DNA of 64,000 bases from a plasmid, in sequence record NZ_CP128206.1; one strand, given 5' to 3'. A program made the position numbers and the translations under genes. The notes under the pieces were generated by a model. It was not told where the DNA came from. It ran no database searches and worked only from the letters and a program-made list of their open reading frames with translations. This document shows positions 11,560-33,134 of this stretch, piece by piece; the stretch's first letter is position 1; each line of letters starts with the position of its first letter.

Positions 11560-12001
11560 ATTGCTATGAATTCATGCTAGAACACCTGCTGTGCTTCAGT
11601 GTTGTCCGCATGGCTAAGGTGTTCAGGGTTTCTCGAAGTGGGTTTTATTATTGGATTAAGCATCGCCACAAGGCTATTCAACGCGAAGCAACTCGCCAAG
11701 AACTTGATACAAAGGTTAAAGATGCTTTTGACAACAGTAAGGGGAGAGATGGTTCAAGGCGCATCCAGAAAGAACAGTCTGAGAACGGTGATAGCCATGA
11801 TGTTAAAACCATTGCAGCCAGCATGAAGCGTCAGGATTTAACGCCGAAAGCGGCACGCAAGTTTAAGTGTACAACGGACAGCAAGCATAAGATGCCTGTA
11901 GCTCCGAACTTGCTAGCTCAGGACTTTAATGCAACGGCCCCGAATCAGAAATGGGCGGGAGATATCACGTATCTTGCCACAAGCGAAGGCTGGTTGTATT
12001 T
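11523..12001 (+). pseudogene. IS3-family orfB, 5' portion. The gene is split by the Tn3-family composite transposon.
   Basis: ...QKWAGDITYLATSEGWLYL stops at the IR at 12002. The matching C-terminal part [14 protein letters not shown]... begins at 32677. Confidence 0.8.
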
Positions 12002-15000
12002 GGGGTTCTAGGGATTTTCCCCTCTAAAGTAACATAGAATGCTACAGGCTTTGTATTATATAGCCTCCAGCTGTGGGTTACTTTCGTTTCCAAGCTTAAT
12101 CATCCACGATTGGCTTCGTAATTTCACTAATATCAGGCAATTTTCCGGTATTGGTGAAGTTATACGTCCCGCTTAAGTTGATATTTTGCCATGCAACGGG
12201 CGAAACAGCACGAGTGATAGCCGCTTTTTCTTCATCACCTGTCGCTTCAAAGTGTCCCAGAAGATGACTCAGTATCGCGGAGTTGAAGTAGATGAGCGCA
12301 TTGGCAAGCAATCTTGCGCATTCATTCCAGATAGCGATTTCAGACTCGTTTTTGCCACGGAACTGATCACCATTCACCGACGCAATGGCTCGTCTAAGGA
12401 AGTGCCATGCTTCTCCCCGGTTCAGGGCACGTTGCACATACTGCCGCAAACTGGCATCGTCGATGTAGTCAAGTAAATATTGCGCTTTAACCAGTCGATT
12501 ATACTCCGTCAGAGCCTGTAATATTGGGTGTCCAGAAGGGTAACCAGACAACTTTCTTACCAGCATTGCTTGTGTCGTCCGCTTTGTCTGAAGTGACAGA
12601 ACAATACGCCTGATATCTTGCCATCCCGTTGTAATAACATTCGTTCTGATAGGCTTCTTTAGCGCCAGTATGGTGCTGCCTTGTTCACTTTCAGTCACAT
12701 CAAACAGATCATTGATGACACTACTGAACTGCGCGTATCGCGGTGCAAAACTGTAACCGCATAGATCCAGTAAGGCGAAGTTAACATGATTGACACCGTG
12801 TGTATCTGTCGAGAGTACGTCAGGTTTGATTTCACTGCTGTTGGATTGTAACAGGTCATAAATATAGTGTGATTCGTGCTCGTTGGAACCGATGATCCGA
12901 GCATTGAGGGCGCTGTGGTTGGCCACCAGTGTCATGGCCGTGATCCCTTTGTTGGTGCCGAAATACTTAGAGGAGTACCGGGTTTTAAAGGTTTCCAGAT
13001 GGGTTTCGAATTTCTGACCATCCGCACTGGCATGCAGCTGGTCCTCCTGAATATGGTAGTGGCGGAAGATGGGTAGCGCTGCAACCGCATTATTGATCAC
13101 GTCGCTGGCGTCATGCAGCGTTTCAGGCCGGATATAGTTGGCCTGCACCGTACTCAGGTGTTCATAGCTTCGATCGGAGATCTGCGCCATGCCATACACA
13201 CCACGGTGAGTGGCGTTGGCAATCAGAATGGCCAGTAAATCATCCTGATGAGTGAACCCTTGTTTTTGTATCGGAAGTACATGAGTCAGACATTTCATGA
13301 ACCCGGTTTCGCGCTCTACATACCGCAGTACATCCGCGATACCGACCGGTTGCATTCGCTTAAAAAAGGGATTGTTGACCAGAGATGTAGCGCTTTTGGT
13401 CGGCAGACGCCAGCGGGTACCGGTACGATTTTTCATGATCACATTTCGATTGTCTCCCTCATCAATATGGAGAGCAACGTCTTTGAGTGCACTTTCCAGC
13501 CGGTGTTGTTTCTCCTGTAACAATAACTCTGCGGGCTGTTTTAGTCTGTCCAGTGTTGATGAGGCCAGCAAGGTATCCTGCGATGTCTGGGGGATCAGGT
13601 CGTCTTCCAGTGCGCGGTATTTGGTAACATTTGGCAAATAAATGCGTCCATTCAGTCGTGAGGTTAACTGCCGGTAGAGCAGCCATTCGTAACGTTGCGG
13701 GTTAACGTTATCCTGTTTAACCAACCATGGGAGGTGCTTTTTCGGGATGAGCGACGTATCCATCGTCTTCAGTGGTCCACCGAATGCGATTTCCGTCTGC
13801 ATCTGTTGAAGTTGGGCGACGACGGCTTCTGAGCCTTTACCGGCCTCACATTCAAGGCACAAGAACACCTGCCTTAACAGTTGCTCCAGGAGATTGCATT
13901 GTTCATCGTAATGTTGCCACTGGTACTCTTCCACGGTCCGTTTCTGTTTTTTCAGGTAAAGGCAGAGGGTCTGGATATCCCTGTCATTCATGACCTTCAA
14001 TGCCTGTTGTCTGACTACTGAGAAGGGTTGATTATCATCAATGTTCTCATCCACAAACAGATGCAGTAACTCTGCCGCTTTCGTGACATTGTCCGCGGCT
14101 GACTGCCAGGACAGGAACACTGCTTGTTGTGCAAAGGTGTTGGCAGCTTCTTGTTGCTTGCGGATATGGTAAATGAACCCATCAGTTAACCGTTCCAGTG
14201 CCAGTTGTATCCGCTCTGTCAGGTGACATAGCAACCATAGATGCTGCTGTGCGCGTTTGAATCGTTTGAGTTTACTACCGTAATAGTTGATGAGCTCACC
14301 GAAGTGTTGTCGATTTTTAAGAGACAGATTAAGCCCATCGATAACGCCATTGATTTGCGTGCGCCATGGCGCTAACTGATGATAAAGGGCAAGCTCTTTT
14401 TTAAGTTCAGGTACGGTCAGACTTTTTGCACCGCCTCTGAGCTGGTTCAGGCTTAGTCCGTCATCAATGGCTGTTATGCTGTCCAGAAAGACGTGAAGTT
14501 CAGGACTGGTGAGTTGATTAAGTTGGTGCGCCAGGTCTTTTCTGACCTGCTGCATCGCTCTGCTTATCAGTCTCTGGAGTACGGTGTACCTAGGGATAGC
14601 AATGCTGTGACTGGTTAGGAATTCAATAGCAGTATCAAAGAGGTAACGCGGCTCCAGCCAGGCATTGCCCACCTGAACAAGGTGGTCGAAAAGAGAATTG
14701 AAGTGCTGACTTTCGTCCCATTTGTGATAACCAGCAAGGTCTAATACTTTTGCGTAGAGTCGATCTTTTTGTTTTTGTGAGGGAGTGAATGGTCTGAGCC
14801 CCTTGCCGCCAAGCAGCTCTTTACTGATGAACATTAAATCCTTAGAAACCTGCGAGTAAGCGATATCTAGGATGACGGGCTTTGATTTGAAGTATCCCAA
14901 AATCGCGACAAAGTAACATCTATGAGCTCTGAGACGAATTGACCGAAAAACTGCCAATTCCGCATCGTTCAGAGAAAAGTACAGACGTTGTTCTTCGATT

Positions 15001-15213
15001 GAAAAAATGGGTGGGGAATAAAGATCTGCCTGTTCTGCTCTCGTGAGAATAGTAATTTCGTTTTTGATGGCCATATCAGGGCTGTTCCGTATTAAATGTA
15101 CGATATTTACCTAATTTGCCACACTTATAAGTAGTAACCCACCTCCGCAGCCATTTATTGGTGTGGTCTACAGAGGATTAAGTCTTTTTAGAGGGGAAAA
15201 TCCCTAGAACCCC
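12002..15213 (-). mobile_element. Tn3-family IS-like element, copy A. 3.2 kb, tnpA only, with 27-bp terminal IRs GGGGTTCTAGGGATTTTCCCCTCTAAA.
   Basis: IRs at 12002-12028 and 15187-15213. Intact 992-aa TnpA. No tnpR or res site visible. Confidence 0.8.
12096..15074 (-). CDS. tnpA: Tn3-family DDE transposase TnpA, intact
   Basis: 992 aa, the typical Tn3-family length. Confidence 0.85.
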   Translation of the reverse strand: MAIKNEITILTRAEQADLYSPPIFSIEEQRLYFSLNDAELAVFRSIRLRAHRCYFVAILGYFKSKPVILDIAYSQVSKDLMFISKELLGGKGLRPFTPSQKQKDRLYAKVLDLAGYHKWDESQHFNSLFDHLVQVGNAWLEPRYLFDTAIEFLTSHSIAIPRYTVLQRLISRAMQQVRKDLAHQLNQLTSPELHVFLDSITAIDDGLSLNQLRGGAKSLTVPELKKELALYHQLAPWRTQINGVIDGLNLSLKNRQHFGELINYYGSKLKRFKRAQQHLWLLCHLTERIQLALERLTDGFIYHIRKQQEAANTFAQQAVFLSWQSAADNVTKAAELLHLFVDENIDDNQPFSVVRQQALKVMNDRDIQTLCLYLKKQKRTVEEYQWQHYDEQCNLLEQLLRQVFLCLECEAGKGSEAVVAQLQQMQTEIAFGGPLKTMDTSLIPKKHLPWLVKQDNVNPQRYEWLLYRQLTSRLNGRIYLPNVTKYRALEDDLIPQTSQDTLLASSTLDRLKQPAELLLQEKQHRLESALKDVALHIDEGDNRNVIMKNRTGTRWRLPTKSATSLVNNPFFKRMQPVGIADVLRYVERETGFMKCLTHVLPIQKQGFTHQDDLLAILIANATHRGVYGMAQISDRSYEHLSTVQANYIRPETLHDASDVINNAVAALPIFRHYHIQEDQLHASADGQKFETHLETFKTRYSSKYFGTNKGITAMTLVANHSALNARIIGSNEHESHYIYDLLQSNSSEIKPDVLSTDTHGVNHVNFALLDLCGYSFAPRYAQFSSVINDLFDVTESEQGSTILALKKPIRTNVITTGWQDIRRIVLSLQTKRTTQAMLVRKLSGYPSGHPILQALTEYNRLVKAQYLLDYIDDASLRQYVQRALNRGEAWHFLRRAIASVNGDQFRGKNESEIAIWNECARLLANALIYFNSAILSHLLGHFEATGDEEKAAITRAVSPVAWQNINLSGTYNFTNTGKLPDISEITKPIVDD

Positions 15214-15544
15214 ATCTCCAAACATATCAAGCGTGTCTGTATCCCACTCTATTGTAAACAAGACATTTTTATCTTTTATATTCAATGGCTTATTTTCCTG
15301 CTAATTGGTAATACCATGAAAAATACCATGCTCAGAAAAGGCTTAACAATATTTTGAAAAATTGCCTACTGAGCGCTGCCGCACAGCTCCATAGGCCGCT
15401 TTCCTGGCTTTGCTTCCAGATGTATGCTATTCTGCTCCTGCAGCTAATGGATCACCGCAAACAGGTTACTCGCCTGGGGATTCCCTTTCGACCCGAGCAT
15501 CCGTATGAGACTCATGCTCGATTATTATTATTATAGAAGCCCCC

Positions 15545-16360
15545 ATGAATAAATCGCTCATCATTTTCGGCATCGTCAACATAACCTCGGACAGTTTCTC
15601 CGATGGAGGCCGGTATCTGGCGCCAGACGCAGCCATTGCGCAGGCGCGTAAGCTGATGGCCGAGGGGGCAGATGTGATCGACCTCGGTCCGGCATCCAGC
15701 AATCCCGACGCCGCGCCTGTTTCGTCCGACACAGAAATCGCGCGTATCGCGCCGGTGCTGGACGCGCTCAAGGCAGATGGCATTCCCGTCTCGCTCGACA
15801 GTTATCAACCCGCGACGCAAGCCTATGCCTTGTCGCGTGGTGTAGCCTATCTCAATGATATTCGCGGTTTTCCAGACGCTGCGTTCTATCCGCAATTGGC
15901 GAAATCATCTGCCAAACTCGTCGTTATGCATTCGGTGCAAGACGGGCAGGCAGATCGGCGCGAGGCACCCGCTGGCGACATCATGGATCACATTGCGGCG
16001 TTCTTTGACGCGCGCATCGCGGCGCTGACGGGTGCCGGTATCAAACGCAACCGCCTTGTCCTTGATCCCGGCATGGGGTTTTTTCTGGGGGCTGCTCCCG
16101 AAACCTCGCTCTCGGTGCTGGCGCGGTTCGATGAATTGCGGCTGCGCTTCGATTTGCCGGTGCTTCTGTCTGTTTCGCGCAAATCCTTTCTGCGCGCGCT
16201 CACAGGCCGTGGTCCGGGGGATGTCGGGGCCGCGACACTCGCTGCAGAGCTTGCCGCCGCCGCAGGTGGAGCTGACTTCATCCGCACACACGAGCCGCGC
16301 CCCTTGCGCGACGGGCTGGCGGTATTGGCGGCGCTGAAAGAAACCGCAAGAATTCGTTAA
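15545..16360 (+). CDS. sul2: Sulfonamide-resistant dihydropteroate synthase Sul2
   Basis: 271 aa, MNKSLIIFGIVNITSDSFSDGG... Recognised Sul2 sequence. High-GC context. Confidence 0.95.
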   Translation: MNKSLIIFGIVNITSDSFSDGGRYLAPDAAIAQARKLMAEGADVIDLGPASSNPDAAPVSSDTEIARIAPVLDALKADGIPVSLDSYQPATQAYALSRGVAYLNDIRGFPDAAFYPQLAKSSAKLVVMHSVQDGQADRREAPAGDIMDHIAAFFDARIAALTGAGIKRNRLVLDPGMGFFLGAAPETSLSVLARFDELRLRFDLPVLLSVSRKSFLRALTGRGPGDVGAATLAAELAAAAGGADFIRTHEPRPLRDGLAVLAALKETARIR

Positions 16361-16420
16361 CTGCACATTCGGGATATTTCTCTATATTCGCGCTTCATCA
16401 GAAAACTGAAGGAACCTCCA

Positions 16421-17224
16421 TTGAATCGAACTAATATTTTTTTTGGTGAATCGCATTCTGACTGGTTGCCTGTCAGAGGCGGAGAATCTGGTGATTTTGT
16501 TTTTCGACGTGGTGACGGGCATGCCTTCGCGAAAATCGCACCTGCTTCCCGCCGCGGTGAGCTCGCTGGAGAGCGTGACCGCCTCATTTGGCTCAAAGGT
16601 CGAGGTGTGGCTTGCCCCGAGGTGATCAACTGGCAGGAGGAACAGGAGGGTGCATGCTTGGTGATAACGGCAATTCCGGGAGTACCGGCGGCTGATCTGT
16701 CTGGAGCGGATTTGCTCAAAGCGTGGCCGTCAATGGGGCAGCAACTTGGCGCTGTTCACAGCCTATCGGTTGATCAATGTCCGTTTGAGCGCAGGCTGTC
16801 GCGAATGTTCGGACGCGCCGTTGATGTGGTGTCCCGCAATGCCGTCAATCCCGACTTCTTACCGGACGAGGACAAGAGTACGCCGCAGCTCGATCTTTTG
16901 GCTCGTGTCGAACGAGAGCTACCGGTGCGGCTCGACCAAGAGCGCACCGATATGGTTGTTTGCCATGGTGATCCCTGCATGCCGAACTTCATGGTGGACC
17001 CTAAAACTCTTCAATGCACGGGTCTGATCGACCTTGGGCGGCTCGGAACAGCAGATCGCTATGCCGATTTGGCACTCATGATTGCTAACGCCGAAGAGAA
17101 CTGGGCAGCGCCAGATGAAGCAGAGCGCGCCTTCGCTGTCCTATTCAATGTATTGGGGATCGAAGCCCCCGACCGCGAACGCCTTGCCTTCTATCTGCGA
17201 TTGGACCCTCTGACTTGGGGTTGA
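16421..17224 (+). CDS. strA: Aminoglycoside 3''-phosphotransferase APH(3'')-Ib
   Basis: 267 aa, MNRTNIFFGESHSDWLPV... Overlaps the strB start (TGATG). Confidence 0.95.
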   Translation: MNRTNIFFGESHSDWLPVRGGESGDFVFRRGDGHAFAKIAPASRRGELAGERDRLIWLKGRGVACPEVINWQEEQEGACLVITAIPGVPAADLSGADLLKAWPSMGQQLGAVHSLSVDQCPFERRLSRMFGRAVDVVSRNAVNPDFLPDEDKSTPQLDLLARVERELPVRLDQERTDMVVCHGDPCMPNFMVDPKTLQCTGLIDLGRLGTADRYADLALMIANAEENWAAPDEAERAFAVLFNVLGIEAPDRERLAFYLRLDPLTWG

Positions 17225-18060
17225 TGTTCATGCCGCCTGTTTTTCCTGCTCATTGGCACGTTTCGCAACCTGTTCTCATTGCGGACACCTTTTCCAGCCT
17301 CGTTTGGAAAGTTTCATTGCCAGACGGGACTCCTGCAATCGTCAAGGGATTGAAACCTATAGAAGACATTGCTGATGAACTGCGCGGGGCCGACTATCTG
17401 GTATGGCGCAATGGGAGGGGAGCAGTCCGGTTGCTCGGTCGTGAGAACAATCTGATGTTGCTCGAATATGCCGGGGAGCGAATGCTCTCTCACATCGTTG
17501 CCGAGCACGGCGACTACCAGGCGACCGAAATTGCAGCGGAACTAATGGCGAAGCTGTATGCCGCATCTGAGGAACCCCTGCCTTCTGCCCTTCTCCCGAT
17601 CCGGGATCGCTTTGCAGCTTTGTTTCAGCGGGCGCGCGATGATCAAAACGCAGGTTGTCAAACTGACTACGTCCACGCGGCGATTATAGCCGATCAAATG
17701 ATGAGCAATGCCTCGGAACTGCGTGGGCTACATGGCGATCTGCATCATGAAAACATCATGTTCTCCAGTCGCGGCTGGCTGGTGATAGATCCCGTCGGTC
17801 TGGTCGGTGAAGTGGGCTTTGGCGCCGCCAATATGTTCTACGATCCGGCTGACAGAGACGACCTTTGTCTCGATCCTAGACGCATTGCACAGATGGCGGA
17901 CGCATTCTCTCGTGCGCTGGACGTCGATCCGCGTCGCCTGCTCGACCAGGCGTACGCTTATGGGTGCCTTTCCGCAGCTTGGAACGCGGATGGAGAAGAG
18001 GAGCAACGCGATCTAGCTATCGCGGCCGCGATCAAGCAGGTGCGACAGACGTCATACTAG
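17224..18060 (+). CDS. strB: Aminoglycoside 6-phosphotransferase APH(6)-Id, full length
   Basis: MFMPPVFPAHWHVSQPVLIADTF... ending ...IKQVRQTSY. The ORF track shows an upstream TTG extension. Confidence 0.95.
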   Translation: MFMPPVFPAHWHVSQPVLIADTFSSLVWKVSLPDGTPAIVKGLKPIEDIADELRGADYLVWRNGRGAVRLLGRENNLMLLEYAGERMLSHIVAEHGDYQATEIAAELMAKLYAASEEPLPSALLPIRDRFAALFQRARDDQNAGCQTDYVHAAIIADQMMSNASELRGLHGDLHHENIMFSSRGWLVIDPVGLVGEVGFGAANMFYDPADRDDLCLDPRRIAQMADAFSRALDVDPRRLLDQAYAYGCLSAAWNADGEEEQRDLAIAAAIKQVRQTSY

Positions 18061-18083
18061 ATATCAAGCGACTTCTCCTATCC

Positions 18084-18160: not shown

Positions 18161-18164
18161 GACC

Positions 18165-18683: not shown

Positions 18684-18714
18684 CCCGCATGGCATAGGCC
18701 TATCGTTTCCACGA

Positions 18715-19914
18715 TCAGCGATCGGCTCGTTGCCCTGCGCCGCTCCAAAGCCCGCGACGCAGCGCCGGCAGGCAGAGCAAGTAGAGGGCAGCGCCTGCAA
18801 TCCATGCCCACCCGTTCCACGTTGTTATAGAAGCCGCATAGATCGCCGTGAAGAGGAGGGGTCCGACGATCGAGGTCAGGCTGGTGAGCGCCGCCAGTGA
18901 GCCTTGCAGCTGCCCCTGACGTTCCTCATCCACCTGCCTGGACAACATTGTTTGCAGCGCCGGCATTCCGATGCCACCCGAAGCAAGCAGGACCATGATC
19001 GGGAACGCCATCCATCCCCGTGTCGCGAAGGCAAGCAGGATGTAGCCTGTGCCGTCGGCAATCATTCCGAGCATGAGTGCCCGCCTTTCGCCGAGCCGGG
19101 CGGCTACAGGGCCGGTGATCATTGCCTGGGCGAGTGAATGCAGAATGCCAAATGCGGCAAGCGAAATGCCGATCGTGGTCGCGTCCCAGTGAAAGCGATC
19201 CTCGCCGAAAATGACCCAAAGCGCGGCCGGCACCTGTCCGACAAGTTGCATGATGAAGAAGACCGCCATCAGGGCGGCGACGACGGTCATGCCCCGGGCC
19301 CACCGGAACGAAGCGAGCGGGTTGAGAGCCTCCCGGCGTAACGGCCGGCGTTCGCCTTTGTGCGACTCCGGCAAAAGGAAACAGCCCGTCAGGAAATTGA
19401 GGCCGTTCAAGGCTGCCGCGGCGAAGAACGGAGCGTGGGGGGAGAAACCGCCCATCAGCCCACCGAGCACAGGTCCCGCGACCATCCCGAACCCGAAACA
19501 GGCGCTCATGAAGCCGAAGTGCCGCGCGCGCTCATCGCCATCAGTGATATCGGCAATATAAGCGCCGGCTACCGCCCCAGTCGCCCCGGTGATGCCGGCC
19601 ACGATCCGCCCGATATAGAGAACCCAAAGGAAAGGCGCTGTCGCCATGATGGCGTAGTCGACAGTGGCGCCGGCCAGCGAGACGAGCAAGATTGGCCGCC
19701 GCCCGAAACGATCCGACAGCGCGCCCAGCACAGGTGCGCAGGCAAATTGCACCAACGCATACAGCGCCAGCAGAATGCCATAGTGGGCGGTGACGTCGTT
19801 CGAGTGAACCAGATCGCGCAGGAGGCCCGGCAGCACCGGCATAATCAGGCCGATGCCGACAGCGTCGAGCGCGACAGTGCTCAGAATTACGATCAGGGGT
19901 CTGTTGGGTTTCAC
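18715..19914 (-). CDS. tet(A): Tetracycline efflux MFS transporter Tet(A)
   Basis: MKPNRPLIVILSTVALDAVGIGLIMPVLPGLLRDL... Recognised class A TetA, 399 aa. The ORF-track extension to 19989 is upstream read-through. Confidence 0.95.
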   Translation of the reverse strand: MKPNRPLIVILSTVALDAVGIGLIMPVLPGLLRDLVHSNDVTAHYGILLALYALVQFACAPVLGALSDRFGRRPILLVSLAGATVDYAIMATAPFLWVLYIGRIVAGITGATGAVAGAYIADITDGDERARHFGFMSACFGFGMVAGPVLGGLMGGFSPHAPFFAAAALNGLNFLTGCFLLPESHKGERRPLRREALNPLASFRWARGMTVVAALMAVFFIMQLVGQVPAALWVIFGEDRFHWDATTIGISLAAFGILHSLAQAMITGPVAARLGERRALMLGMIADGTGYILLAFATRGWMAFPIMVLLASGGIGMPALQTMLSRQVDEERQGQLQGSLAALTSLTSIVGPLLFTAIYAASITTWNGWAWIAGAALYLLCLPALRRGLWSGAGQRADR

Positions 19915-19940
19915 GTCTGGCCTCCGGACCAGCCTCCGCT

Positions 19941-20019: not shown

Positions 20020-20670
20020 ATGACAAAGTTGCAGCCGAATACAGTGATCCGTGCCGCCCTGGACCTGTTGAACGAGGTCGGCGTAGACGGTCTGACGACA
20101 CGCAAACTGGCGGAACGGTTGGGGGTTCAGCAGCCGGCGCTTTACTGGCACTTCAGGAACAAGCGGGCGCTGCTCGACGCACTGGCCGAAGCCATGCTGG
20201 CGGAGAATCATACGCATTCGGTGCCGAGAGCCGACGACGACTGGCGCTCATTTCTGATCGGGAATGCCCGCAGCTTCAGGCAGGCGCTGCTCGCCTACCG
20301 CGATGGCGCGCGCATCCATGCCGGCACGCGACCGGGCGCACCGCAGATGGAAACGGCCGACGCGCAGCTTCGCTTCCTCTGCGAGGCGGGTTTTTCGGCC
20401 GGGGACGCCGTCAATGCGCTGATGACAATCAGCTACTTCACTGTTGGGGCCGTGCTTGAGGAGCAGGCCGGCGACAGCGATGCCGGCGAGCGCGGCGGCA
20501 CCGTTGAACAGGCTCCGCTCTCGCCGCTGTTGCGGGCCGCGATAGACGCCTTCGACGAAGCCGGTCCGGACGCAGCGTTCGAGCAGGGACTCGCGGTGAT
20601 TGTCGATGGATTGGCGAAAAGGAGGCTCGTTGTCAGGAACGTTGAAGGACCGAGAAAGGGTGACGATTGA
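20020..20670 (+). CDS. tetR: Tetracycline repressor TetR, class A
   Basis: MTKLQPNTVIRAALDLLNEVGVDGLTTRKLAERLGVQQPALYWHF... Confidence 0.95.
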   Translation: MTKLQPNTVIRAALDLLNEVGVDGLTTRKLAERLGVQQPALYWHFRNKRALLDALAEAMLAENHTHSVPRADDDWRSFLIGNARSFRQALLAYRDGARIHAGTRPGAPQMETADAQLRFLCEAGFSAGDAVNALMTISYFTVGAVLEEQAGDSDAGERGGTVEQAPLSPLLRAAIDAFDEAGPDAAFEQGLAVIVDGLAKRRLVVRNVEGPRKGDD

Positions 20671-22982: not shown

Positions 22983-24197
22983 TTAGACGACTGGCGACTT
23001 CTCGGTGGCAGCCCCACGGAGCCGAAGGAGCACCAGCCCCAACGAAACCAGTACCGCCATCGCCGTGGCGTAACAGATCACGGGCCACGCTGTGTCACCG
23101 TTTAAAAGTGCCACCGCCAATGTCCCGACAATGCTGACTATCAGGCTTTGAACGCAGAAGTAGAACGCGACCGCTGATCCCGCGATGTCGTCGAACTCTG
23201 CCAAAGCGCCGTTCGCGGTAACGGACACCGTGAAGACAATACCGACCGCGACAACCCACATCGGTAGGATGAAGGTGAGGAATGACGGCGAGCCGTAAAG
23301 TTCGCCGATCCCCAACAGGACCGCTCCGCAAACAAGCAACGCCATCCCACGCGCCACGCATCCTGCGATGCCCCATCTGGCGACAAAGGACTTCGCGAAA
23401 CGGGTTGTCACGATCATTACAAGCGCGACAGTGGCGAAGGCAAAGCTGAATCCGATCTCGGAATATTCCGCTTGGCCTATGAGCACACGGGGAGCCGTCG
23501 AGAAGAAGACGAAGTAGGTGCCCATACCGGCGCTAAAGCCGACAGTGTAAACCCAAAAAGCCGGACTCGCGAAGATCGGCAAGACAGATCGGCGCGTCTT
23601 GACTTGATCCAGAGGGCGGGTTTCGTGCCACCTGAAACCCGCATTTAGGAGTGCGAGCATCGCCAGTATAGCCAAAGTAATGAATATCGCCTGCCATCCC
23701 AAGAACTCGCCGATCAATGTTCCGGCGATAGGGCCGAGCGCAGGCACGAACGCCAGCATCGAACTGAAAAGGCCGTAGATGACGACACCCTCAGGACGGT
23801 TGGCATAAACGTCGCGAACCGTCGCGAACGTCGCCACCAGCATGGCCGACGCGCCCACTGCTTGAAGTAGACGGAAAGCGACAAAGGCCGGTGCAGTTGA
23901 AGACCAAGCTGCTCCCAGAGACGCAATGACGAAAGCCGTTGCGCCCGCAAGTAGAATTGGCCGTCGCCCGATTCTGTCTGAGAGCGGACCAAAAATCACC
24001 TGGCCCACGCCGAGCATCACCATATAGAGGCTCAACGTGAGTTGGATCATAGCGGGCGTCGTGTTCAGGATGCCGGGCATCGCTGGAACGACAGGGAGAT
24101 AAATATCCATCGCCAGTGAAGCGAGGATGTCGAAAGGAGCCATCAGCAGCAGTGCTGCCGGCAGCGTATAGGCCCACGCGGGGCGTGTGGTGGTCAT
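22983..24197 (-). CDS. floR: Florfenicol/chloramphenicol efflux MFS transporter FloR
   Basis: 404 aa, MTTTRPAWAYTLPAALLLMAPFDILASLAMDIYLPVVPAMP... Recognised FloR. Confidence 0.95.
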   Translation of the reverse strand: MTTTRPAWAYTLPAALLLMAPFDILASLAMDIYLPVVPAMPGILNTTPAMIQLTLSLYMVMLGVGQVIFGPLSDRIGRRPILLAGATAFVIASLGAAWSSTAPAFVAFRLLQAVGASAMLVATFATVRDVYANRPEGVVIYGLFSSMLAFVPALGPIAGTLIGEFLGWQAIFITLAILAMLALLNAGFRWHETRPLDQVKTRRSVLPIFASPAFWVYTVGFSAGMGTYFVFFSTAPRVLIGQAEYSEIGFSFAFATVALVMIVTTRFAKSFVARWGIAGCVARGMALLVCGAVLLGIGELYGSPSFLTFILPMWVVAVGIVFTVSVTANGALAEFDDIAGSAVAFYFCVQSLIVSIVGTLAVALLNGDTAWPVICYATAMAVLVSLGLVLLRLRGAATEKSPVV

Positions 24198-24413: not shown

Positions 24414-25298
24414 TCAGCGTTCCAGCCCCCTCTGCCGCCCTAACTGCCACGACACCGACCCGCCCTGCACGATGCCCATAACCTCGCGGCCGAGTTGGCG
24501 GTCGATGATCGGCCGCCACGGGACAAGGGTGAACTCATGGGATTTCTCGACCACGGCGAACTTGCCGCTCGATAGATGCACGGTTCCGGTAAACTTGCCG
24601 CTGACGCTCTCGCCGTCCGTGGCGGCGCGGAACGGCAGGCCCTTACTCAAAGCCATATCCGATCCGACGCCGGCTACCTCGCGCTCCCGCAGGATGGCGA
24701 GAAGGTTGCGCCGGTAGAAGACGCGGCTGTCCCGGCTGCGGGTGGCGTCGCCCTGTTCGATATGGTGCTCGCGGCGCTGGTCCATGGCTTCGCGGACTTG
24801 TTGCCCGAAGCCGGTTGGCGCAAGGTCGGCCGTCTCGCCGTGGATCAGCCGCCGGTCCAGCCAGGTCGCGCCGTCCGATCCGATCTGTTTGTTCAGATCG
24901 ACCGGGGAAAGGACGCGAACGCTGGCCTGACTGTCTCGGCCGGCGTCATGGGCGGCGGCACGGCTGACCAGATCATCGGGGATGCGCCATTGGTCGGCGT
25001 CGATCCGCTCGACGATACCGGCCCGGCGTAGCGCCTCCAGCCGGCGCACATGGGCATCGACATAGCCCTCATAGTCGCCGCCTGGAACGCGGCACGTATA
25101 GGAAGAATAAACGCCCTTTTCACCCAAGTCCAACAGCTTTGGACCGCAGTTGACTCTTTCGACACCCCTGCGATGCAACCCAATCCGGCTGACGGGGAGC
25201 CAGCAACGCTGAAAATTTACCCTCCTCTTTCCCACTAGCGGCTCCTTTTCCGACAACCAGCACGGCGGATCCCTGCCGCGGCGCTGTGAACGCAGCAT
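24414..25298 (-). CDS. VirD2-like relaxase-related ORF commonly linked to ISCR2-floR
   Basis: 294 aa. A 74-aa N-terminal fragment of the same ORF is duplicated at 27392-27616. Confidence 0.6.
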   Translation of the reverse strand: MLRSQRRGRDPPCWLSEKEPLVGKRRVNFQRCWLPVSRIGLHRRGVERVNCGPKLLDLGEKGVYSSYTCRVPGGDYEGYVDAHVRRLEALRRAGIVERIDADQWRIPDDLVSRAAAHDAGRDSQASVRVLSPVDLNKQIGSDGATWLDRRLIHGETADLAPTGFGQQVREAMDQRREHHIEQGDATRSRDSRVFYRRNLLAILREREVAGVGSDMALSKGLPFRAATDGESVSGKFTGTVHLSSGKFAVVEKSHEFTLVPWRPIIDRQLGREVMGIVQGGSVSWQLGRQRGLER

Positions 25299-25328
25299 TT
25301 TGATTGGTATCGTTGGCCTTCAGGCTCG

Positions 25329-26345
25329 TCAGTCAAACAGACCCAGGAGCAGCTCAGCCGGTGGCGCCCGGCTTTCGGGTAACGCCCTGGTCCCGCTGGT
25401 TTCGGCTTTGTGCTTCAGGTGATCAAGGATCTGCTTGATCACTATAGGGTCTTCAATGCAGGCGATGACTTTCATGGCGCCGCCGCAGCCGCTGCAGGTC
25501 TCGATGTCGATATTGAAAACACGCTTGAGCCGTTGCGCCCATGTCATCGACGCTCGCCGTTGTGCTGGTGTTGCCGGTTCATCAGCCACCCTGACCTTGT
25601 TGCCCCTGCCCCGTTTTGCCGGCGTGACCAACGCCCGGTGCCGACTGTTGGGTGCGAACACCCCGTGGAAGCGGGTTAGGTTGACTCTGGGCTTCGGTAC
25701 CAGGGCGGCCAGCCTTGCAATGAAATCCAATGGTTCGAAAATGACGTGCGTGGTGCCGTCCCGGTACGGCGTCTTGAGCTGGTAGCGCACGTTGCCGCCT
25801 CGTGTTAACGACAGCCGCTTCTCGGATACCGCCGGGCGGCTGATGTACCGGCACAGCCGTTCGAGCTTCTTGCGTTCATCGGCCCTGGCCGCCACGCCGG
25901 CGTGCAGGCTGGACCCGGCTACCTTGCCAATCCCGTCACCGAACGGATCACCACTGGTCGGCAGAGTTTGCAAAGTGAACACCTTTCGCCCCGCCTGTGA
26001 ACCGACAGCGATACGGTAAGTGATCGAGTGCCCCAGCAGGGGTGTCATCGGGTCGTCATCCACCGCATCCGAGGCCAGATAGCTGTTTTCGACATCCCGT
26101 TCCAGCAGGCCTTGCCGTTCCAGATAGCGACCCACCCGGTGGGCGATGGTGTGCGTCAGCTGGGTGAGCTCTGGGCTGGTCGGCGCCTTGACCCAGCGGA
26201 AACGCGCTGAGCCGTGGGATTGCTCGACATACACACCGTCGAGAAACAGCATGTGGAAGTGAACATTCAGATTGAGCGCCGATCCAAAACGCTGGATCAG
26301 GGTGACCGCGCCCGTCTTGGCCACTTGGTGGGTATGGCCCGCTTT
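25329..26345 (-). pseudogene. ISCR2 3' fragment (C-terminal 331 aa plus its downstream end)
   Basis: Identical to 27647-28670 of the full copy. It starts about 10 codons after the end of the 5' fragment at 22059-22538. Confidence 0.85.
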
Positions 26346-26359
26346 CTTGACCAGGTGCC

Positions 26360-26706
26360 AATACCCATCTTTGTATCAACTCCCCTTCCTGCCCGGCATC
26401 CCCGCAATTGATGACTTCAGAACAAGATGCTACCAATTTTTCAATAACAGCAAATTGCCTTTTTACTCCATCGTTATCAATTAGTTTAATGCCAAATTTT
26501 TTAGGTACAATTGGCAGATCTTCCAATTTCCAGTATTTCCAATTTTCTTTGTAATCATGGGGTTCATTCAATGTACACAGATGGCCAAAAGTCCAGGTTA
26601 CCCAATAGCCATTTCCTTCATAAAAGCCGTTGTTGCGTTGTTTTGCACCAATTACTTCGGCAATATCTTTTGCCACAGAAGGTTTTTCAGCTATACATAA
26701 AATCAT
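26360..26706 (-). pseudogene. DNA topoisomerase III N-terminal (Toprim) fragment
   Basis: MILCIAEKPSVAKDIAEVIG...VTWTFGHL...DLPIVP...CGDAGQEGELI matches the TopB N-terminus. The rest of the 216-aa ORF is antisense ISCR2 sequence. Confidence 0.7.
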
Positions 26707-26788
26707 AAGGAGGCAAAGTTAGTAAGGTCGTTGAAGTTTTGAAACCGTTACATACAAAACATTTCAACAAAAACAGTAAGTTTTAGAG

Positions 26789-27295
26789 TTATTTACGTGT
26801 ATATTTTTTTATTTCAAAAGCAAAAGCGTGTTTTTCATCAATACCCTGTTTCAGTACAGTTTCACTATTCCACTCAGATTCAGAAAATTTAGGAAAAAAA
26901 GTATCTGCGTCAAACACTCCATCTACTTGTGTGATATACATTTCTTGAAGGATGTTTCGCTGCATAACTTCTGCATAAATTTGTCCCCCACCAATGATGA
27001 AAACAGTTCTTTCGGTTTCATTTTTATAGAACTCTAAACATTCAGTAAGTGAAAAAAAGACATGAGCTCCTGGTGCTTGATAGCCGATTTGGTGAGTTAA
27101 AACGGCATTTTCACGATTTGGCAAGGGTCTAAATTTCTCAGGAATAGATTCATAATTTTTACGTCCGGTTATTACTACATGACCTGTTGAAGTTTCTTTA
27201 AAGAATTTCATATCAGCCGGCAATTTCCATAACAAATCGTTGTCTTTACCAATGCCAAAATTTTTATCCATGGCAACAATTAATGATAGTTTCAT
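26789..27295 (-). CDS. dfrA: Dihydrofolate reductase, dfrA-type (trimethoprim-resistance context). Allele not determinable.
   Basis: 168 aa DHFR fold (LIVAMDKNFGIGKDNDLLWKLPADMKFFKETS...). A low-GC gene inside the high-GC ISCR2 resistance block. Confidence 0.8.
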   Translation of the reverse strand: MKLSLIVAMDKNFGIGKDNDLLWKLPADMKFFKETSTGHVVITGRKNYESIPEKFRPLPNRENAVLTHQIGYQAPGAHVFFSLTECLEFYKNETERTVFIIGGGQIYAEVMQRNILQEMYITQVDGVFDADTFFPKFSESEWNSETVLKQGIDEKHAFAFEIKKYTRK

Positions 27296-27391
27296 AATGA
27301 TCGGTATTGAATAATTAATTTTTTATTTGAGGCATTAAGCACATGCAATAATTTCTCAATTGGTTTTTTCACCTTTTCTTTCAAATGTAAC

Positions 27392-27616
27392 TCATCTGCA
27401 GTTTGAATCATACGTATAGGAAGAATAAACGCCCTTTTCACCCAAGTCCAACAGCTTTGGACCGCAGTTGACTCTTTCGACACCCCTGCGATGCAACCCA
27501 ATCCGGCTGACGGGGAGCCAGCAACGCTGAAAATTTACCCTCCTCTTTCCCACTAGCGGCTCCTTTTCCGACAACCAGCACGGCGGATCCCTGCCGCGGC
27601 GCTGTGAACGCAGCAT
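27392..27616 (-). pseudogene. Duplicated 5' fragment of the virD2-like ORF, part of the ISCR2 downstream region
   Basis: The 74-aa ORF is identical to the N-terminus of 24414-25298. Confidence 0.7.
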
Positions 27617-27646
27617 TTTGATTGGTATCGTTGGCCTTCAGGCTCG

Positions 27647-29140
27647 TCAGTCAAACAGACCCAGGAGCAGCTCAGCCGGTGGCGCCCGGCTTTCGGGTAA
27701 CGCCCTGGTCCCGCTGGTTTCGGCTTTGTGCTTCAGGTGATCAAGGATCTGCTTGATCACTATAGGGTCTTCAATGCAGGCGATGACTTTCATGGCGCCG
27801 CCGCAGCCGCTGCAGGTCTCGATGTCGATATTGAAAACACGCTTGAGCCGTTGCGCCCATGTCATCGACGCTCGCCGTTGTGCTGGTGTTGCCGGTTCAT
27901 CAGCCACCCTGACCTTGTTGCCCCTGCCCCGTTTTGCCGGCGTGACCAACGCCCGGTGCCGACTGTTGGGTGCGAACACCCCGTGGAAGCGGGTTAGGTT
28001 GACTCTGGGCTTCGGTACCAGGGCGGCCAGCCTTGCAATGAAATCCAATGGTTCGAAAATGACGTGCGTGGTGCCGTCCCGGTACGGCGTCTTGAGCTGG
28101 TAGCGCACGTTGCCGCCTCGTGTTAACGACAGCCGCTTCTCGGATACCGCCGGGCGGCTGATGTACCGGCACAGCCGTTCGAGCTTCTTGCGTTCATCGG
28201 CCCTGGCCGCCACGCCGGCGTGCAGGCTGGACCCGGCTACCTTGCCAATCCCGTCACCGAACGGATCACCACTGGTCGGCAGAGTTTGCAAAGTGAACAC
28301 CTTTCGCCCCGCCTGTGAACCGACAGCGATACGGTAAGTGATCGAGTGCCCCAGCAGGGGTGTCATCGGGTCGTCATCCACCGCATCCGAGGCCAGATAG
28401 CTGTTTTCGACATCCCGTTCCAGCAGGCCTTGCCGTTCCAGATAGCGACCCACCCGGTGGGCGATGGTGTGCGTCAGCTGGGTGAGCTCTGGGCTGGTCG
28501 GCGCCTTGACCCAGCGGAAACGCGCTGAGCCGTGGGATTGCTCGACATACACACCGTCGAGAAACAGCATGTGGAAGTGAACATTCAGATTGAGCGCCGA
28601 TCCAAAACGCTGGATCAGGGTGACCGCGCCCGTCTTGGCCACTTGGTGGGTATGGCCCGCTTTCTTGACCAGGTGCGTGGCAATGACGCGGTAAACGATG
28701 CCCAGCACCCACCCCATGATCTCGGGCCGGCTGGCAAACAGGAAACGCAGCTGAAACGGGAAGCTCAACACCCACTGACGCATGGGTTGTTCAGGCAGTA
28801 CTTCATCAACCAGCAAGGCGGCACTTTCGGCCATCCGCCGCGCCCCACAGCTCGGGCAGAAACCGCGACGCTTACAGCTGAAAGCGACCAGGTGCTCGGC
28901 GTGGCAAGACTCGCAGCGAACCCGTAGAAAGCCATGCTCCAGCCGCCCGCATTGGAGAAATTCTTCAAATTCCCGTTGCACATAGCCCGGCAATTCCTTT
29001 CCCTGCTCTGCCATAAGCGCAGCGAATGCCGGGTAATACTCGTCAACGATCTGATAGAGAAGGGTTTGCTCGGGTCGGTGGCTCTGGTAACGACCAGTAT
29101 CCCGATCCCGGCTGGCCGTCCTGGCCGCCACATGAGGCAT
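27647..29140 (-). CDS. ISCR2 (ISVsa3-type) IS91-family rolling-circle transposase, intact
   Basis: 497 aa, with HUH-type motifs and a zinc-finger CxxC...CxxC N-terminus. The two fragments elsewhere together reconstitute it. Confidence 0.9.
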   Translation of the reverse strand: MPHVAARTASRDRDTGRYQSHRPEQTLLYQIVDEYYPAFAALMAEQGKELPGYVQREFEEFLQCGRLEHGFLRVRCESCHAEHLVAFSCKRRGFCPSCGARRMAESAALLVDEVLPEQPMRQWVLSFPFQLRFLFASRPEIMGWVLGIVYRVIATHLVKKAGHTHQVAKTGAVTLIQRFGSALNLNVHFHMLFLDGVYVEQSHGSARFRWVKAPTSPELTQLTHTIAHRVGRYLERQGLLERDVENSYLASDAVDDDPMTPLLGHSITYRIAVGSQAGRKVFTLQTLPTSGDPFGDGIGKVAGSSLHAGVAARADERKKLERLCRYISRPAVSEKRLSLTRGGNVRYQLKTPYRDGTTHVIFEPLDFIARLAALVPKPRVNLTRFHGVFAPNSRHRALVTPAKRGRGNKVRVADEPATPAQRRASMTWAQRLKRVFNIDIETCSGCGGAMKVIACIEDPIVIKQILDHLKHKAETSGTRALPESRAPPAELLLGLFD

Positions 29141-29251
29141 GTTCCGCGTCCTTGCAATACTGTGTTTACATACAGTCTATCGCTTAGCGGAAAGTTCTTT
29201 TACCCTCAGCCGAAATGCCTGCCGTTGCTAGACATTGCCAGCCAGTGCCCG

Positions 29252-29443: not shown

Positions 29444-29463
29444 GGCGCGTTCTGTCTCAAGGT

Positions 29464-32400
29464 GGGGTTCTAGGGATTTTCCCCTCTAAAAAGACATAAT
29501 CCTCTGTAGACCACACCAATAAATGGCTGCGGAGGTGGTTTACTTTCAGCTTGGAGCCTAATCATCCACTATCGGCCTTGTTATTTCGCCAATATTGGGC
29601 AATTTCCCAGTATTAGTGAAGTTATACGTTCCGCTTAAGTTGATATTTTGCCACGCAACGGGCGAAACAGCACGAGTGATACCCGCTTTCTCTTCATCTC
29701 CTCTCGCTTCAAAGTGTCCCAGAAGATGACTCAGTATCGCGGAGTTGAAGTAGATGATCGCGTTGGCAAGCAATCTTGCGCATTCATTCCAGATAGCGAT
29801 TTCAGACTCGTTTTTGCCACGGAACTGATCACCATTCACCGACGCAATGGCTCGTCTAAGGAAGTGCCATGCTTCTCCCCGGTTCAGGGCACGTTGCACA
29901 TACTGCCGCAAACTGGCATCGTCGATGTAGTCAAGTAAATATTGCGCTTTAACCAGTCGATTATACTCCGTCAGAGCCTGTAATATTGGGTGTCCAGAAG
30001 GGTAACCAGACAACTTTCTTACCAGCATTGCTTGTGTCGTCCGCTTTGTCTGAAGTGACAGAACAATACGCCTGATATCTTGCCATCCCGTTGTAATAAC
30101 ATTCGTTCTGATAGGCTTCTTTAGCGCCAGTATGGTGCTGCCTTGTTCACTTTCAGTCACATCAAACAGATCATTGATGACACTACTGAACTGCGCGTAT
30201 CGCGGTGCAAAACTGTAACCGCATAGATCCAGTAAGGCGAAGTTAACATGATTGACACCGTGTGTATCTGTCGAGAGTACGTCAGGTTTGATTTCACTGC
30301 TGTTGGATTGTAACAGGTCATAAATATAGTGTGATTCGTGCTCGTTGGAACCGATGATCCGAGCATTGAGGGCGCTGTGGTTGGCCACCAGTGTCATGGC
30401 CGTGATCCCTTTGTTGGTGCCGAAATACTTAGAGGAGTACCGGGTTTTAAAGGTTTCCAGATGGGTTTCGAATTTCTGACCATCCGCACTGGCATGCAGC
30501 TGGTCCTCCTGAATATGGTAGTGGCGGAAGATGGGTAGCGCTGCAACCGCATTATTGATCACGTCGCTGGCGTCATGCAGCGTTTCAGGCCGGATATAGT
30601 TGGCCTGCACCGTACTCAGGTGTTCATAGCTTCGATCGGAGATCTGCGCCATGCCATACACACCACGGTGAGTGGCGTTGGCAATCAGAATGGCCAGTAA
30701 ATCATCCTGATGAGTGAACCCTTGTTTTTGTATCGGAAGTACATGAGTCAGACATTTCATGAACCCGGTTTCGCGCTCTACATACCGCAGTACATCCGCG
30801 ATACCGACCGGTTGCATTCGCTTAAAAAAGGGATTGTTGACCAGAGATGTAGCGCTTTTGGTCGGCAGACGCCAGCGGGTACCGGTACGATTTTTCATGA
30901 TCACATTTCGATTGTCTCCCTCATCAATATGGAGAGCAACGTCTTTGAGTGCACTTTCCAGCCGGTGTTGTTTCTCCTGTAACAATAACTCTGCGGGCTG
31001 TTTTAGTCTGTCCAGTGTTGATGAGGCCAGCAAGGTATCCTGCGATGTCTGGGGATCAGGTCGTCTTCCAGTGCGCGGTATTTGGTAACATTTGGCAAAT
31101 AAATGCGTCCATTCAGTCGTGAGGTTAACTGCCGGTAGAGCAGCCATTCGTAACGTTGCGGGTTAACGTTATCCTGTTTAACCAACCATGGGAGGTGCTT
31201 TTTCGGGATGAGCGACGTATCCATCGTCTTCAGTGGTCCACCGAATGCGATTTCCGTCTGCATCTGTTGAAGTTGGGCGACGACGGCTTCTGAGCCTTTA
31301 CCGGCCTCACATTCAAGGCACAAGAACACCTGCCTTAACAGTTGCTCCAGGAGATTGCATTGTTCATCGTAATGTTGCCACTGGTACTCTTCCACGGTCC
31401 GTTTCTGTTTTTTCAGGTAAAGGCAGAGGGTCTGGATATCCCTGTCATTCATGACCTTCAATGCCTGTTGTCTGACTACTGAGAAGGGCTGATTGTCATC
31501 AATATTCTCGTCAACAAACAGGTGAAGTAGCTCTGCCGCTTTCGTGACATTGTCCGCAGCTGACTGCCAGGACAGGAACACTGCTTGTTGTGCAAAGGCG
31601 TTGGCGGCTTCCTGTTGTTTTCGGATATGGTAAACAAACCCATCCGTCAGGCGCTCCAGTGCAAGTTGCATGCGCTCTGTCAGATGACACAGTAACCACA
31701 GGTGCTGCTGTGAGCGTTTGAAGCGCCGCACTTTACTGCCGTAGTAATCAATAAGGCCGCTGAAGTGTTGTCGATTTTTTAGCGACAGATTGAGCCTGTC
31801 CACAACGTCATTTATTTGCGTGTGCCATGGTGCTAACCGGTGGTAAATGGCGAGCTCTTTTTTAAGCTCAGGCACGGTCAGACTTTTGGCACCACCCCTG
31901 AGATGGCTCAGACTCAGCCCGTCGTCTTTAGTAGTGATTATGTTGTCCAGAAAGACGTTAAGTTCATTACTGGTAAGTTGATTCAGTTGGAGCGTCAGGT
32001 CTTTTCTGACCTGTTGCATTGTGCGGCTTATCAGTCTTTGAAGCACGGAGTACTTAGGAATGGCAATGTTATGGCTGGCAAGGTATTCAATGGCCGCATC
32101 AAAGAGGTGTCGAGGCTCCAGCCAGGCATGACCAATGTAAACCAGGTGGTGGCACAGAGCATTGAGGTGCTGTTTTTCATTCCACTTATTGTAATTTAGT
32201 AGACGCAGTATCCTTGAGTAAATACGGTCACGCTGCATTTTACTGACACTGAAAGGCCTGATCCCTTTACCTCTTTGAATTTGGGAGGCAATAAACTGCA
32301 TGTCGATACTGATATCACGGAAACTCGGAGCAATGATCACTGGCTTAGATTTAAAATAGCCCAGAAGCGCCACGAAATAACAACGATGTTTAGTAAGCCT

Positions 32401-32676
32401 GATAGTACGGCATTCGGCCTGTTCTACATCGTTTAGCGAAAAATACAAACGTTGTTCCTCAATAGAAAACTGAGGTGCTGAATACAAGTCTCGTTGTTCT
32501 GCCTGAGTCAGAATCGAGAGTTCATTACTAATTGCCATGATGAATAAACGCCAATATGATTGATGGTGTTTATATAAGATGGCAGAATATTGGAAGGTAA
32601 CCCACCGCCACAGACCATATAATATAATACCTGTAGCGTTCTATGTTACTTTAGAGGGGAAAATCCCTAGAACCCC
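29464..32676 (-). mobile_element. Tn3-family IS-like element, copy B. Same IRs as copy A, a mosaic tnpA with a divergent 5' third, and a 1-bp deletion.
   Basis: IRs at 29464-29490 and 32650-32676. tnpA is split into ORFs 29558-31147 and 31003-32538. A G is missing at about 31050 relative to copy A (TCTGGGGATCAGG versus TCTGGGGGATCAGG). Confidence 0.8.
29558..32538 (-). pseudogene. tnpA: Tn3-family tnpA, frameshifted. The N-terminal third is about 75 percent identical to copy A and the rest is near-identical.
   Basis: See the two overlapping ORFs in the track. Confidence 0.8.
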
Positions 32677-33134
32677 TATTTGGCTGTGATCATTGACCTT
32701 TACTCACGACAAGTAATAGGCTGGTCGATGGATACGAGGATGACGGCAACACTGGTCTGCGATGCATTATCAATGGCTCGTTCCGTCGAGGCTTCCCAGA
32801 GGAAGTTATTGTTCATAGTGATCGGGGTAGCCAGTATTGCTCAAAAGATTATCGAGACCTCATAACTGCTTATAATCTAAAACAAAGTATGAGTAGGAAA
32901 GGAAACTGCTGGGACAATGCTTGTGTTGAGAGCTTCTTTCATTCGATGAAAGTAGAAGCGATTCAATACGAACCGATAATGACGAGAGATGAGATGCGCC
33001 AAACGGTCTTCGAGTACATAGAGGTTGATTATAATCGGACGAGAAGGCACAGTGCTCTTGGATATCTAAGCCCAGTTAACTTTGAACAGCAAAATGTCGC
33101 TTAATGAAGTGTCCAGTCTGGCTGGAGCAGATCA
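32677..33134 (+). mobile_element. IS3-family element, right part (3' part of orfB and IRR)
   Basis: Begins with the TATTT duplication. OrfB resumes as [16 protein letters not shown]... (ORFs 32680-32865 and 32889-33104). IRR ends ...GGAGCAGATCA at 33134. Confidence 0.8.

Follow-up and report, generated by a model that had tools for sequence, protein, structure and literature searches.

The resistance unit and its insertion site

How did a block of resistance genes come to lie within a transposase gene of this plasmid, and did it arrive as one piece? The window, which is the whole 64,000-nucleotide stretch of plasmid record NZ_CP128206.1 that was analysed, contains a unit of 20,675 bp (12002-32676) that ends in GGGG...CCCC inverted repeats (IRs). 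Within it, two Tn3-family, insertion sequence (IS)-like elements, here called c1 and c2, enclose a 14.2-kb resistance region assembled around ISCR2. An earlier note, made from the DNA letters only, had read the whole as a single Tn3-family transposon lying in orfB of an IS3 element. The evidence presented below indicates that 12002-32676 is very probably a Tn3-family composite transposon, and that it moved as one piece into IS3 orfB by means of its outermost IRs. The features that define the unit and its target are the following.

11216-12001, plus strand: left part of the interrupted IS3-family element, with its left IR (TGATCCGCACCAGC...), orfA, a slippery motif and the 5' part of orfB
11278-11559, plus strand: orfA of this element, with a match to HTH_Tnp_1
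11997-12001: left copy of the target-site duplication TATTT, directly outside the outer IR tip
12002-15213, minus strand: c1, a Tn3-family IS-like element of 3,212 bp, with an A-type IR at its left (outer) end and a B-type IR at its right (inner) end
12002-12085, plus strand: outer left terminal IR, A-type (that of element Y, see below), pairing with 32593-32676 over 84 nt with 87% complementarity
15133-15213, plus strand: inner end of c1, the B-type IR of ISShfr9, pairing with 29464-29544 over 81 nt (97.5%)
29464-32676, minus strand: c2, a Tn3-family IS-like element of 3,213 bp, with a B-type IR at its left (inner) end and an A-type IR at its right (outer) end
32677-32681: right copy of the target-site duplication TATTT, directly outside the outer IR tip
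32682-33134, plus strand: right part of the IS3 element, with the 3' part of orfB, which changes frame near 32785, and the right IR

As the earlier note had described, TATTT lies immediately outside the outermost IRs, and a check of the flanking pentamers for mismatch finds them identical on both sides. The inner flanks (ATCTC after 15213 and AAGGT before 29464) are unrelated to TATTT; because they do not match the outer ones, neither copy has a duplication of its own, which is also what had been claimed. A single 5-mer match has a chance of about 1e-3, as estimated from base composition. The TATTT match goes beyond chance: matching 5-mers also flank the unit at two further sites and a derivative of it at a fourth, and an empty site is known for each of the three full-length insertions.

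The ends themselves are of two types. Copies of the 27-nt sequence GGGGTTCTAGGGATTTTCCCCTCTAAA start at 12002 and 29464, copies of its reverse complement end at 15213 and 32676, and the 21-nt core does not occur in the window beyond these four element ends. The perfect 27-nt repeat is common to all four ends, and beyond it the A-type and B-type IRs diverge. Thus the identical 27-bp IRs first reported are indeed present at each end, but they are only the shared part of two longer types of IR, of about 81 and about 84 bp. Tn3-family elements are expected to have IRs of at least about 38 bp beginning with GGGG, a 5-bp target duplication and a DDE transposase of about 1,000 amino acids (aa). The outer (84-nt) and inner (81-nt) IR pairs have this length and start, the duplications are of 5 bp (TATTT here, and AAGAA, ATTAC and TATAC at the sites described below), and a transposase of the expected kind and size is encoded.

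The flanks of the unit form an IS3 element on a plasmid, so that the target is, as proposed, an IS3 transposase gene rather than rumB. This element has imperfect inverted repeats at 11216 and 33134 and an A6G slippery motif near 11527. Its conceptual OrfB scores 341 bits against NCBIfam transpos_IS3 and matches Pfam rve at residues 138-235, a core that spans the insertion point. Removal of 12002-32681 joins orfB in frame directly after ...ATSEGWLYL, and the predicted continuity of the reading frame across the excised unit is therefore seen. However, the expectation that deletion in silico would restore an intact orfB does not hold: an independent frameshift remains near 32785, about 100 bp downstream of the insertion, and places the HSDRG...CWDNACVES portion of the rve core in another frame, which runs to 33104. 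Uninterrupted copies of this IS3 element align without a gap across ~32785 and hence carry the same frameshift, so the copy was defective before the unit inserted. (A 237-bp piece of the IS3 right end is repeated, in inverted orientation, at 39538-39774.)

These uninterrupted copies provide an exact empty site. The 172-nt junction that is reconstructed by removing the unit is 100% identical in NZ_CP040989.1, NZ_CP064380.1, pVFBJ07-1 (V. furnissii) and pIDH5335-1 (V. fluvialis), and deletion of the unit plus one TATTT recreates the IS3 copy of those plasmids base for base. On NZ_CP040989.1 the two window flanks cover 11287-12075 and 12069-12528 and so share no more than TATTT plus GG; their identity is 99.6-99.9% to NZ_CP040989.1 and 99.9-100% to pVFBJ07-1. 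Elsewhere the window encodes a Rep3 initiator, a 1,466-aa TraN and SXT/IncC-like genes, and the annotation of the corresponding region in NZ_CP040989.1 includes a MobI(A/C) gene. The backbone is that of a Vibrio plasmid of the V. furnissii type. The window also holds two inverted open reading frames (ORFs) of 306 aa, at 4221-5141 (minus strand) and 54812-55732 (plus strand), whose DNA is ~92% identical; the counterpart of the first is annotated as an IS5-family transposase in related plasmids.

The same unit at other sites

Other carriers were sought using the unit region plus its flanks as the query. In pVCGX2, pHLA-202008, NZ_CP150904.1 (215,724 bp) and pVb1504-tet, the match ends exactly at window positions 12002 and 32676, with 99.8% identity; NZ_CP150904.1 is matched at the same coordinates as pHLA-202008. 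Two further records, pSLV18-111K and NZ_OK085530.1, match the same span in three pieces, and the 20.7-kb version is thus present in at least six plasmid records. In pVCGX2, pHLA-202008, pVb1504-tet and pSLV18-111K, the unit adjoins a Qat defence locus and is flanked on both sides by AAGAA; the 400-nt reconstruction of this empty site is matched at 400/400 positions in three plasmids. A shorter version, measured here at 18,346 bp (PMC10434038 gives 18,115 bp), lies in pVb1762 (OK146920) with ATTAC on both sides, and the corresponding empty site, with a single ATTAC, is found in pW6G. The window unit and the pVCGX2 copy differ at about 56 alignment columns.

A derivative occupies a fourth site. 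In pVFBJ07-1 (NZ_CP128202.1), at positions 13710-17373, the initial 451 bp of c1 run straight into a full-length c2, with TATAC on both sides; both A-type outer ends are retained. This mini-derivative looks like an adjacent deletion made from the inner end of c2. It sits in about 5 kb of DNA that the window does not have and that would fall between its positions 33914 and 33923.

There are, then, three full-length insertions and one derivative, each with a different AT-rich 5-bp duplication, and at the three loci the same termini are accompanied by a duplication of their own and by an empty site, as is required of a composite transposon. The distinct duplications of these independent insertions and of the derivative therefore provide decisive evidence that the unit transposed by means of its outer ends. 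Together with the exact TATTT empty site, they bear out the proposal of the earlier note that the whole unit moved as one Tn3-family transposon.

Single hybrid copies were also seen, in the Proteus pZA25-tetX plasmid and in Alteromonas pKD02, and no duplication of their own was found for these two. A scan of genome contigs for A-type ends gave only 8 loci, mostly in marine Alteromonas and metagenome-assembled genomes, and no clean duplication among them, and thus added no insertion site to those above. In one contig, from Alteromonas antoniana (NZ_JAESDH010000003.1), an A-type left end at 2941 is followed 439 bp later, at 3380, by a B-type left end. Here, as in pVFBJ07-1, an X-type end (see below) directly adjoins the initial ~440-450 bp of a Y element, and the two cases are independent.

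The bracketing elements are reciprocal mosaics

The two bracketing elements had been described as direct repeats that both carry tnpA on the minus strand. The orientation is as described, but their sub-terminal ~70-84 bp are exchanged, the copies are reciprocal mosaics of two elements, and the second tnpA is split.

12096-15074, minus strand: c1 tnpA, intact, 992 aa, matching NCBIfam transpos_Tn3 (NF033527) at 988 bits (cut-off 500)
29558-31147 and 31003-32538, minus strand: c2 tnpA, split into ORFs of 529 and 511 aa, the halves matching DDE_Tnp_Tn3 and DUF4158
c1 mosaic, minus strand, in element positions from the four-way alignment: Y-type 28-699; X-type 710-3185
c2 mosaic, minus strand, in element positions from the four-way alignment: Y-type 317-699 and 2026-3186; X-type 28-299 and 710-1911

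Copies identical to c1 occur in Vibrio plasmids. In c2, one G has been lost from a run of G (the window reads GGGG at ~31047-31050) relative to the 993-aa gene of pVCGX2; the c2 tnpA is intact, at 993 aa, in pVCGX2, pHLA-202008 and pVb1504-tet. No resolvase or other recombinase was matched among the ORFs scanned in 12002-32676, the remaining interior being annotated genes, and these ORFs provide none of the resolution modules of the Tn3, Tn21 and Tn4430 types (TnpR, TnpI or TnpS/T, with res). ISShfr9 is among the Tn3-family derivatives that encode a transposase only (PMC4337579).

The mosaic was resolved by a four-way alignment of c1, c2 and two reference elements, with 584 informative sites. 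The first reference, X, is the element in pSLV18-111K, in which both ends are B-type (~81-bp IRs) and whose transposase is named as ISShfr9 family by the Prokaryotic Genome Annotation Pipeline (PGAP); the second, Y, is a related element in pIDH5335-1, in which both ends are A-type (~84-bp IRs). In a BLAST comparison of c1 with c2 the interior homology is direct, whereas the terminal 71-84 bp are matched in inverted orientation. This terminal swap might suggest that a site-specific exchange took place at element position ~72, an idea that is rejected on the four-way alignment. Homologous recombination fits, because the exchanged tracts run to about 300, 700 and 1950. Each copy has one private change, and c1 and c2 are the same at all informative sites between ~317 and ~1911. 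Consequently the unit is Y-type in its outer portions and IRs on both sides, and X-type in its inner ones. The segments c1 710-3185, c2 28-299 and c2 710-1911 are identical, or nearly so, to the element that PGAP names 'Tn3-like element ISShfr9 family transposase'; the other parts of c1 and c2 derive from a relative that is ~90% identical overall and 54-66% identical at the 5' end of tnpA. Within the N-terminal 300 aa of TnpA, where X and Y have 63-83% identity, c1 is X-type and c2 is Y-type.

Both parents are found in pure form. Pure X, with B-type IRs at both ends, is present in pSLV18-111K and in a Proteus mirabilis SXT/R391-type element. Pure Y, with A-type IRs at both ends, occupies 8165-11378 of pIDH5335-1 (NZ_AP028130.1), and its left flank is the ATTAC flank of the pVb1762 type. 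The right flank of this Y is V. furnissii-plasmid DNA; it corresponds, in inverted orientation, to ~33170-33189 of the window, some 500 bp away from the TATTT site. These flanks suggest that Y mediated the fusion or rearrangement of an IncC-like plasmid with a window-type backbone. For the second junction of such a putative cointegrate, the expected right flank is absent from the linear pIDH5335-1 record, a result that is neutral with regard to replicative transposition.

The mosaic bears directly on the first of three other explanations for the unit, namely that it is an unresolved cointegrate, in which one ISShfr9-type element on a circle of about 17.5 kb, made up of the element and the resistance region, transposed replicatively into IS3 orfB, and donor and target then stayed fused for want of a resolvase. 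The topology is suitable, with direct repeats, a duplication at the outer ends only and no resolvase matched, and ISShfr9-type elements are without a resolvase (PMC4337579). However, a cointegrate should have two identical copies, whereas c1 and c2 differ at hundreds of sites and have reciprocal X/Y ends; the process would also need to remake the same non-identical pair and the same inner junctions at three sites with three duplications. Given the non-identical copies and the same asymmetric pair at three sites, this model is rejected, and we regard it as very improbable.

Slightly less credible again is that the unit was imported by homologous recombination between plasmids that share the IS3 element or the backbone, TATTT being coincidental or inherited with the flanks. 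Partners for such an event exist: the backbone is 99.6-100% identical to that of other V. furnissii plasmids, and in pIDH5335-1 a window-type backbone recombines or fuses with IncC-like plasmids. Yet the unit is in IS3 in no plasmid of the collection, none of its other carriers has a flank in common with the window, and the junctions lie exactly at the IR tips, with a direct 5-bp duplication of a sequence that is single in the empty site. The least likely explanation of all, two independent element insertions whose flanks were later scrambled by inversion or deletion so that the outer pentamers do not come from one event, could draw on the ability of intramolecular Tn3-family transposition to separate duplications and on the lack of a duplication for either copy, but the empty site shows that only the unit and 5 bp were added with nothing lost, and the same unit occurs elsewhere with other duplications.

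Proposed origin and mode of transposition

Transposition of the composite as one piece leaves the question of how such a mosaic pair arose. The simplest history starts with a circular or plasmid molecule, carrying the canonical X (ISShfr9) together with the resistance region, which would have recombined with a Y element that was already resident. A single reciprocal crossover at about element position 700-710 and gene conversion over some 1.6 kb would together give Y-type outer flanks and IRs, X-type inner flanks and IRs, and identical middles. In effect, the product would be a Y element whose natural pair of ends encloses 17.5 kb of cargo. Because the plain Y in pIDH5335-1 abuts the same ATTAC left flank, the arrangement hints that the composite may have formed in situ on this lineage of plasmids and then transposed to other sites.

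Movement of the unit would presumably be replicative and proceed through a cointegrate, as in other members of the Tn3 family. With no resolvase matched in the unit, resolution of the cointegrate would fall to the homologous recombination system of the host, acting on the two 20.7-kb copies. Of the two transposases, that of c2 would suit the outer A-type ends best, because its N-terminal 300 aa are Y-type. Since this gene is frameshifted in the window, the unit may rely on the c1 transposase or may be crippled or less mobile.

Several points weigh against parts of this account. The c2 frameshift lies in a homopolymer and could be either a real inactivation or a sequencing error, and it makes the current mobility of the unit uncertain. 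One crossover does not suffice for the origin that we infer, which also calls for a conversion tract. Replicative transposition, target immunity, resolution through RecA and the choice of transposase are all inferred from the behaviour of the family. Exclusive use of matched A/A ends is a hypothesis, and the first 27 bp are common to all four ends. The pVFBJ07-1 derivative suggests, moreover, that c2 may be active alone despite its hybrid ends.

A more speculative extension, which we consider possible but doubtful, is that this crossover, by placing an ISShfr9-borne resistance circle inside Y, left neither copy with a cognate pair of ends; only the 20.7-kb unit would have one, in its long Y-type IRs together with the Y-type N-terminal DNA-binding region of the c2 transposase. 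The co-variation of the sub-terminal IR with the TnpA N-terminus would then constitute a specificity code. If true, this would force the resistance block to travel as a unit.

Genes carried by the unit

Between c1 and c2 the following genes and fragments were identified.

15545-16360, plus strand: sul2 (NCBIfam Sul2, 615 bits), in agreement with the pVCGX2 annotation
16421-17224, plus strand: aph(3'')-Ib/strA (NCBIfam APH(3'')-Ib, 638 bits), in agreement with the pVCGX2 annotation
17224-18060, plus strand: aph(6)-Id/strB (NCBIfam APH(6)-I, 386 bits), in agreement with the pVCGX2 annotation
18715-19914, minus strand: tet(A) (Tet(A), 888 bits)
20020-20670, plus strand: tetR(A) (TetR, 305 bits)
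21185-21973, plus strand: second, partial copy of aph(6)-Id (Pfam APH_6_hur)
22650-22955, minus strand: lysR fragment (HTH_1)
22983-24197, minus strand: floR (FloR, 899 bits)
24414-25298, minus strand: DUF3363/relaxase-like fragment (C-terminal part of RlxS)
25329-29140, minus strand: ISCR2 (ISVsa3) module (Y2_Tnp, Toprim and ISCR matches)
25329-26324, minus strand: truncated ISCR2, within this module
26056-26706, minus strand: Toprim-domain fragment (Toprim)
26789-27295, minus strand: dihydrofolate reductase (DHFR) of 168 aa, between ISCR2 copies
27647-29140, minus strand: complete ISCR2 transposase (ISCR clade Ia, 671 bits)

The tet(A)/tetR(A) pair is inserted between two copies of strB, with strB repeats at 17227-17526 and 21182-21481. 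Relative to pVCGX2, the second strB copy is cut short by a 2-bp indel at 21914-21915, and a patch of about 50 bp is rearranged at 22080-22132, at the edge of an ISCR2 fragment; beyond the c2 frameshift, these are the only structural differences from the pVCGX2 unit.

The dfr segment is bracketed by direct repeats (25094-25393 and 27412-27711). The earlier note had the two elements bracketing a sul2-strAB-tet(A)-floR-dfrA block; these genes are present, but the 'dfrA' fits no named Dfr model. The 168-aa DHFR falls below the cut-off of every one of these models, the best being DfrA36 (227 bits, with a cut-off of 360), so that it is not DfrA36. Outside its own 99% cluster, its nearest relatives are 64-73% identical, the named ones belonging to Bacteroidota (Fluviicola, Crocinitomicaceae), and it is missing from the lists of predicted resistance genes for plasmids of the pVCGX2 type. 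Possibly it represents a trimethoprim-resistance gene, so far unnamed, that was captured by ISCR2. A DHFR of the DfrA36/DfrA20 type beside ISCR2, floR and sul2 recalls the dfrA36/ISCR2-floR-sul2 context.

Comparison with known elements

A composite transposon bounded by ISShfr9 and carrying the same gene set has been published for pVb1762, with a length of 18,115 bp (PMC10434038), and another ISShfr9 composite, which carries blaVMB-2, is cited in PMC10311504. Units of the pVb1762/pVCGX2 type share with the window unit the two bracketing copies, whose ends are A-type on the outside and B-type on the inside, as well as the inner junctions and the sul2-strAB-tet(A)-strB-floR-ISCR2 order. They differ in position, lying at ATTAC or AAGAA, whereas the window unit lies in IS3 orfB with TATTT. 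The pVb1762 version is without the ISCR2-dfr segment that is present in the window, and the window unit is set apart from that of pVCGX2 by its 1-bp frameshift in c2 tnpA and by the 2-bp difference in the second strB copy.

The ISShfr9-like character of c1 and c2 is seen in a transposase of ~990 aa with DUF4158 and DDE_Tnp_Tn3 domains, IRs that begin with GGGG, a 5-bp duplication and no matched resolvase. IS1071 and ISVsa19 are of the same transposase-only Tn3-family kind as ISShfr9, and the ~81-bp IRs of canonical ISShfr9 recall the long IRs of IS1071. Unlike pure ISShfr9, c1 and c2 are each a mosaic with Y, differing in the sub-terminal IR and the TnpA N-terminus.

A resemblance to the composite transposon-like resistance cluster of SXT had also been suggested. 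This likeness is reasonable as far as shared cargo modules and one junction go, but not for the transposon as such. The SXT/R391 resistance cluster has sul2, strAB, floR, ISCR2 and a terminal ISShfr9 in common with the unit; in the Proteus mirabilis SXT/R391-type element, sul2-strAB-ISCR2 is closed by canonical ISShfr9, and the junction of ISCR2 with the B-type IR of c2 (...GTCTCAAGGT/GGGG) is identical there. However, the stretch of this P. mirabilis integrative and conjugative element that was inspected has one canonical ISShfr9 only, whereas the window unit has a matched pair of Y-type ends and demonstrably transposes whole, with 5-bp duplications. The unit lies, moreover, on a plasmid with Rep3, TraN and MobI(A/C) and is flanked by IS3, rather than at the rumB location of SXT/R391. 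A search of the available literature found neither a description of a 'composite transposon-like' cluster in rumB of SXT nor a Tn number formally assigned to the unit.

The element is not new, because it has been published for pVb1762 and because its 20.7-kb version is in the plasmid records described above; the window adds a new insertion site and a further recipient replicon, a plasmid of the V. furnissii type. In PMC10434038 we found no description of the duplications and their empty sites, of the X/Y mosaic or of the unnamed dfr, which are modest, incremental additions.

Implications

The unit is a vehicle for six to seven resistance determinants, against sulfonamide, streptomycin, tetracycline, florfenicol/chloramphenicol and probably trimethoprim, and it moves among plasmids of aquaculture-associated and human-associated Vibrio species. 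For specialists in resistance plasmids this biology is ordinary. The three insertion sites of the unit, each with an empty site, make a clean case that composites of the ISShfr9 type transpose as units, and the reciprocal X/Y mosaic would explain how the composite formed. If the tentative specificity code were also true, it would represent a general route by which resolvase-less, IS-like elements of the Tn3 family become large cargo transposons.

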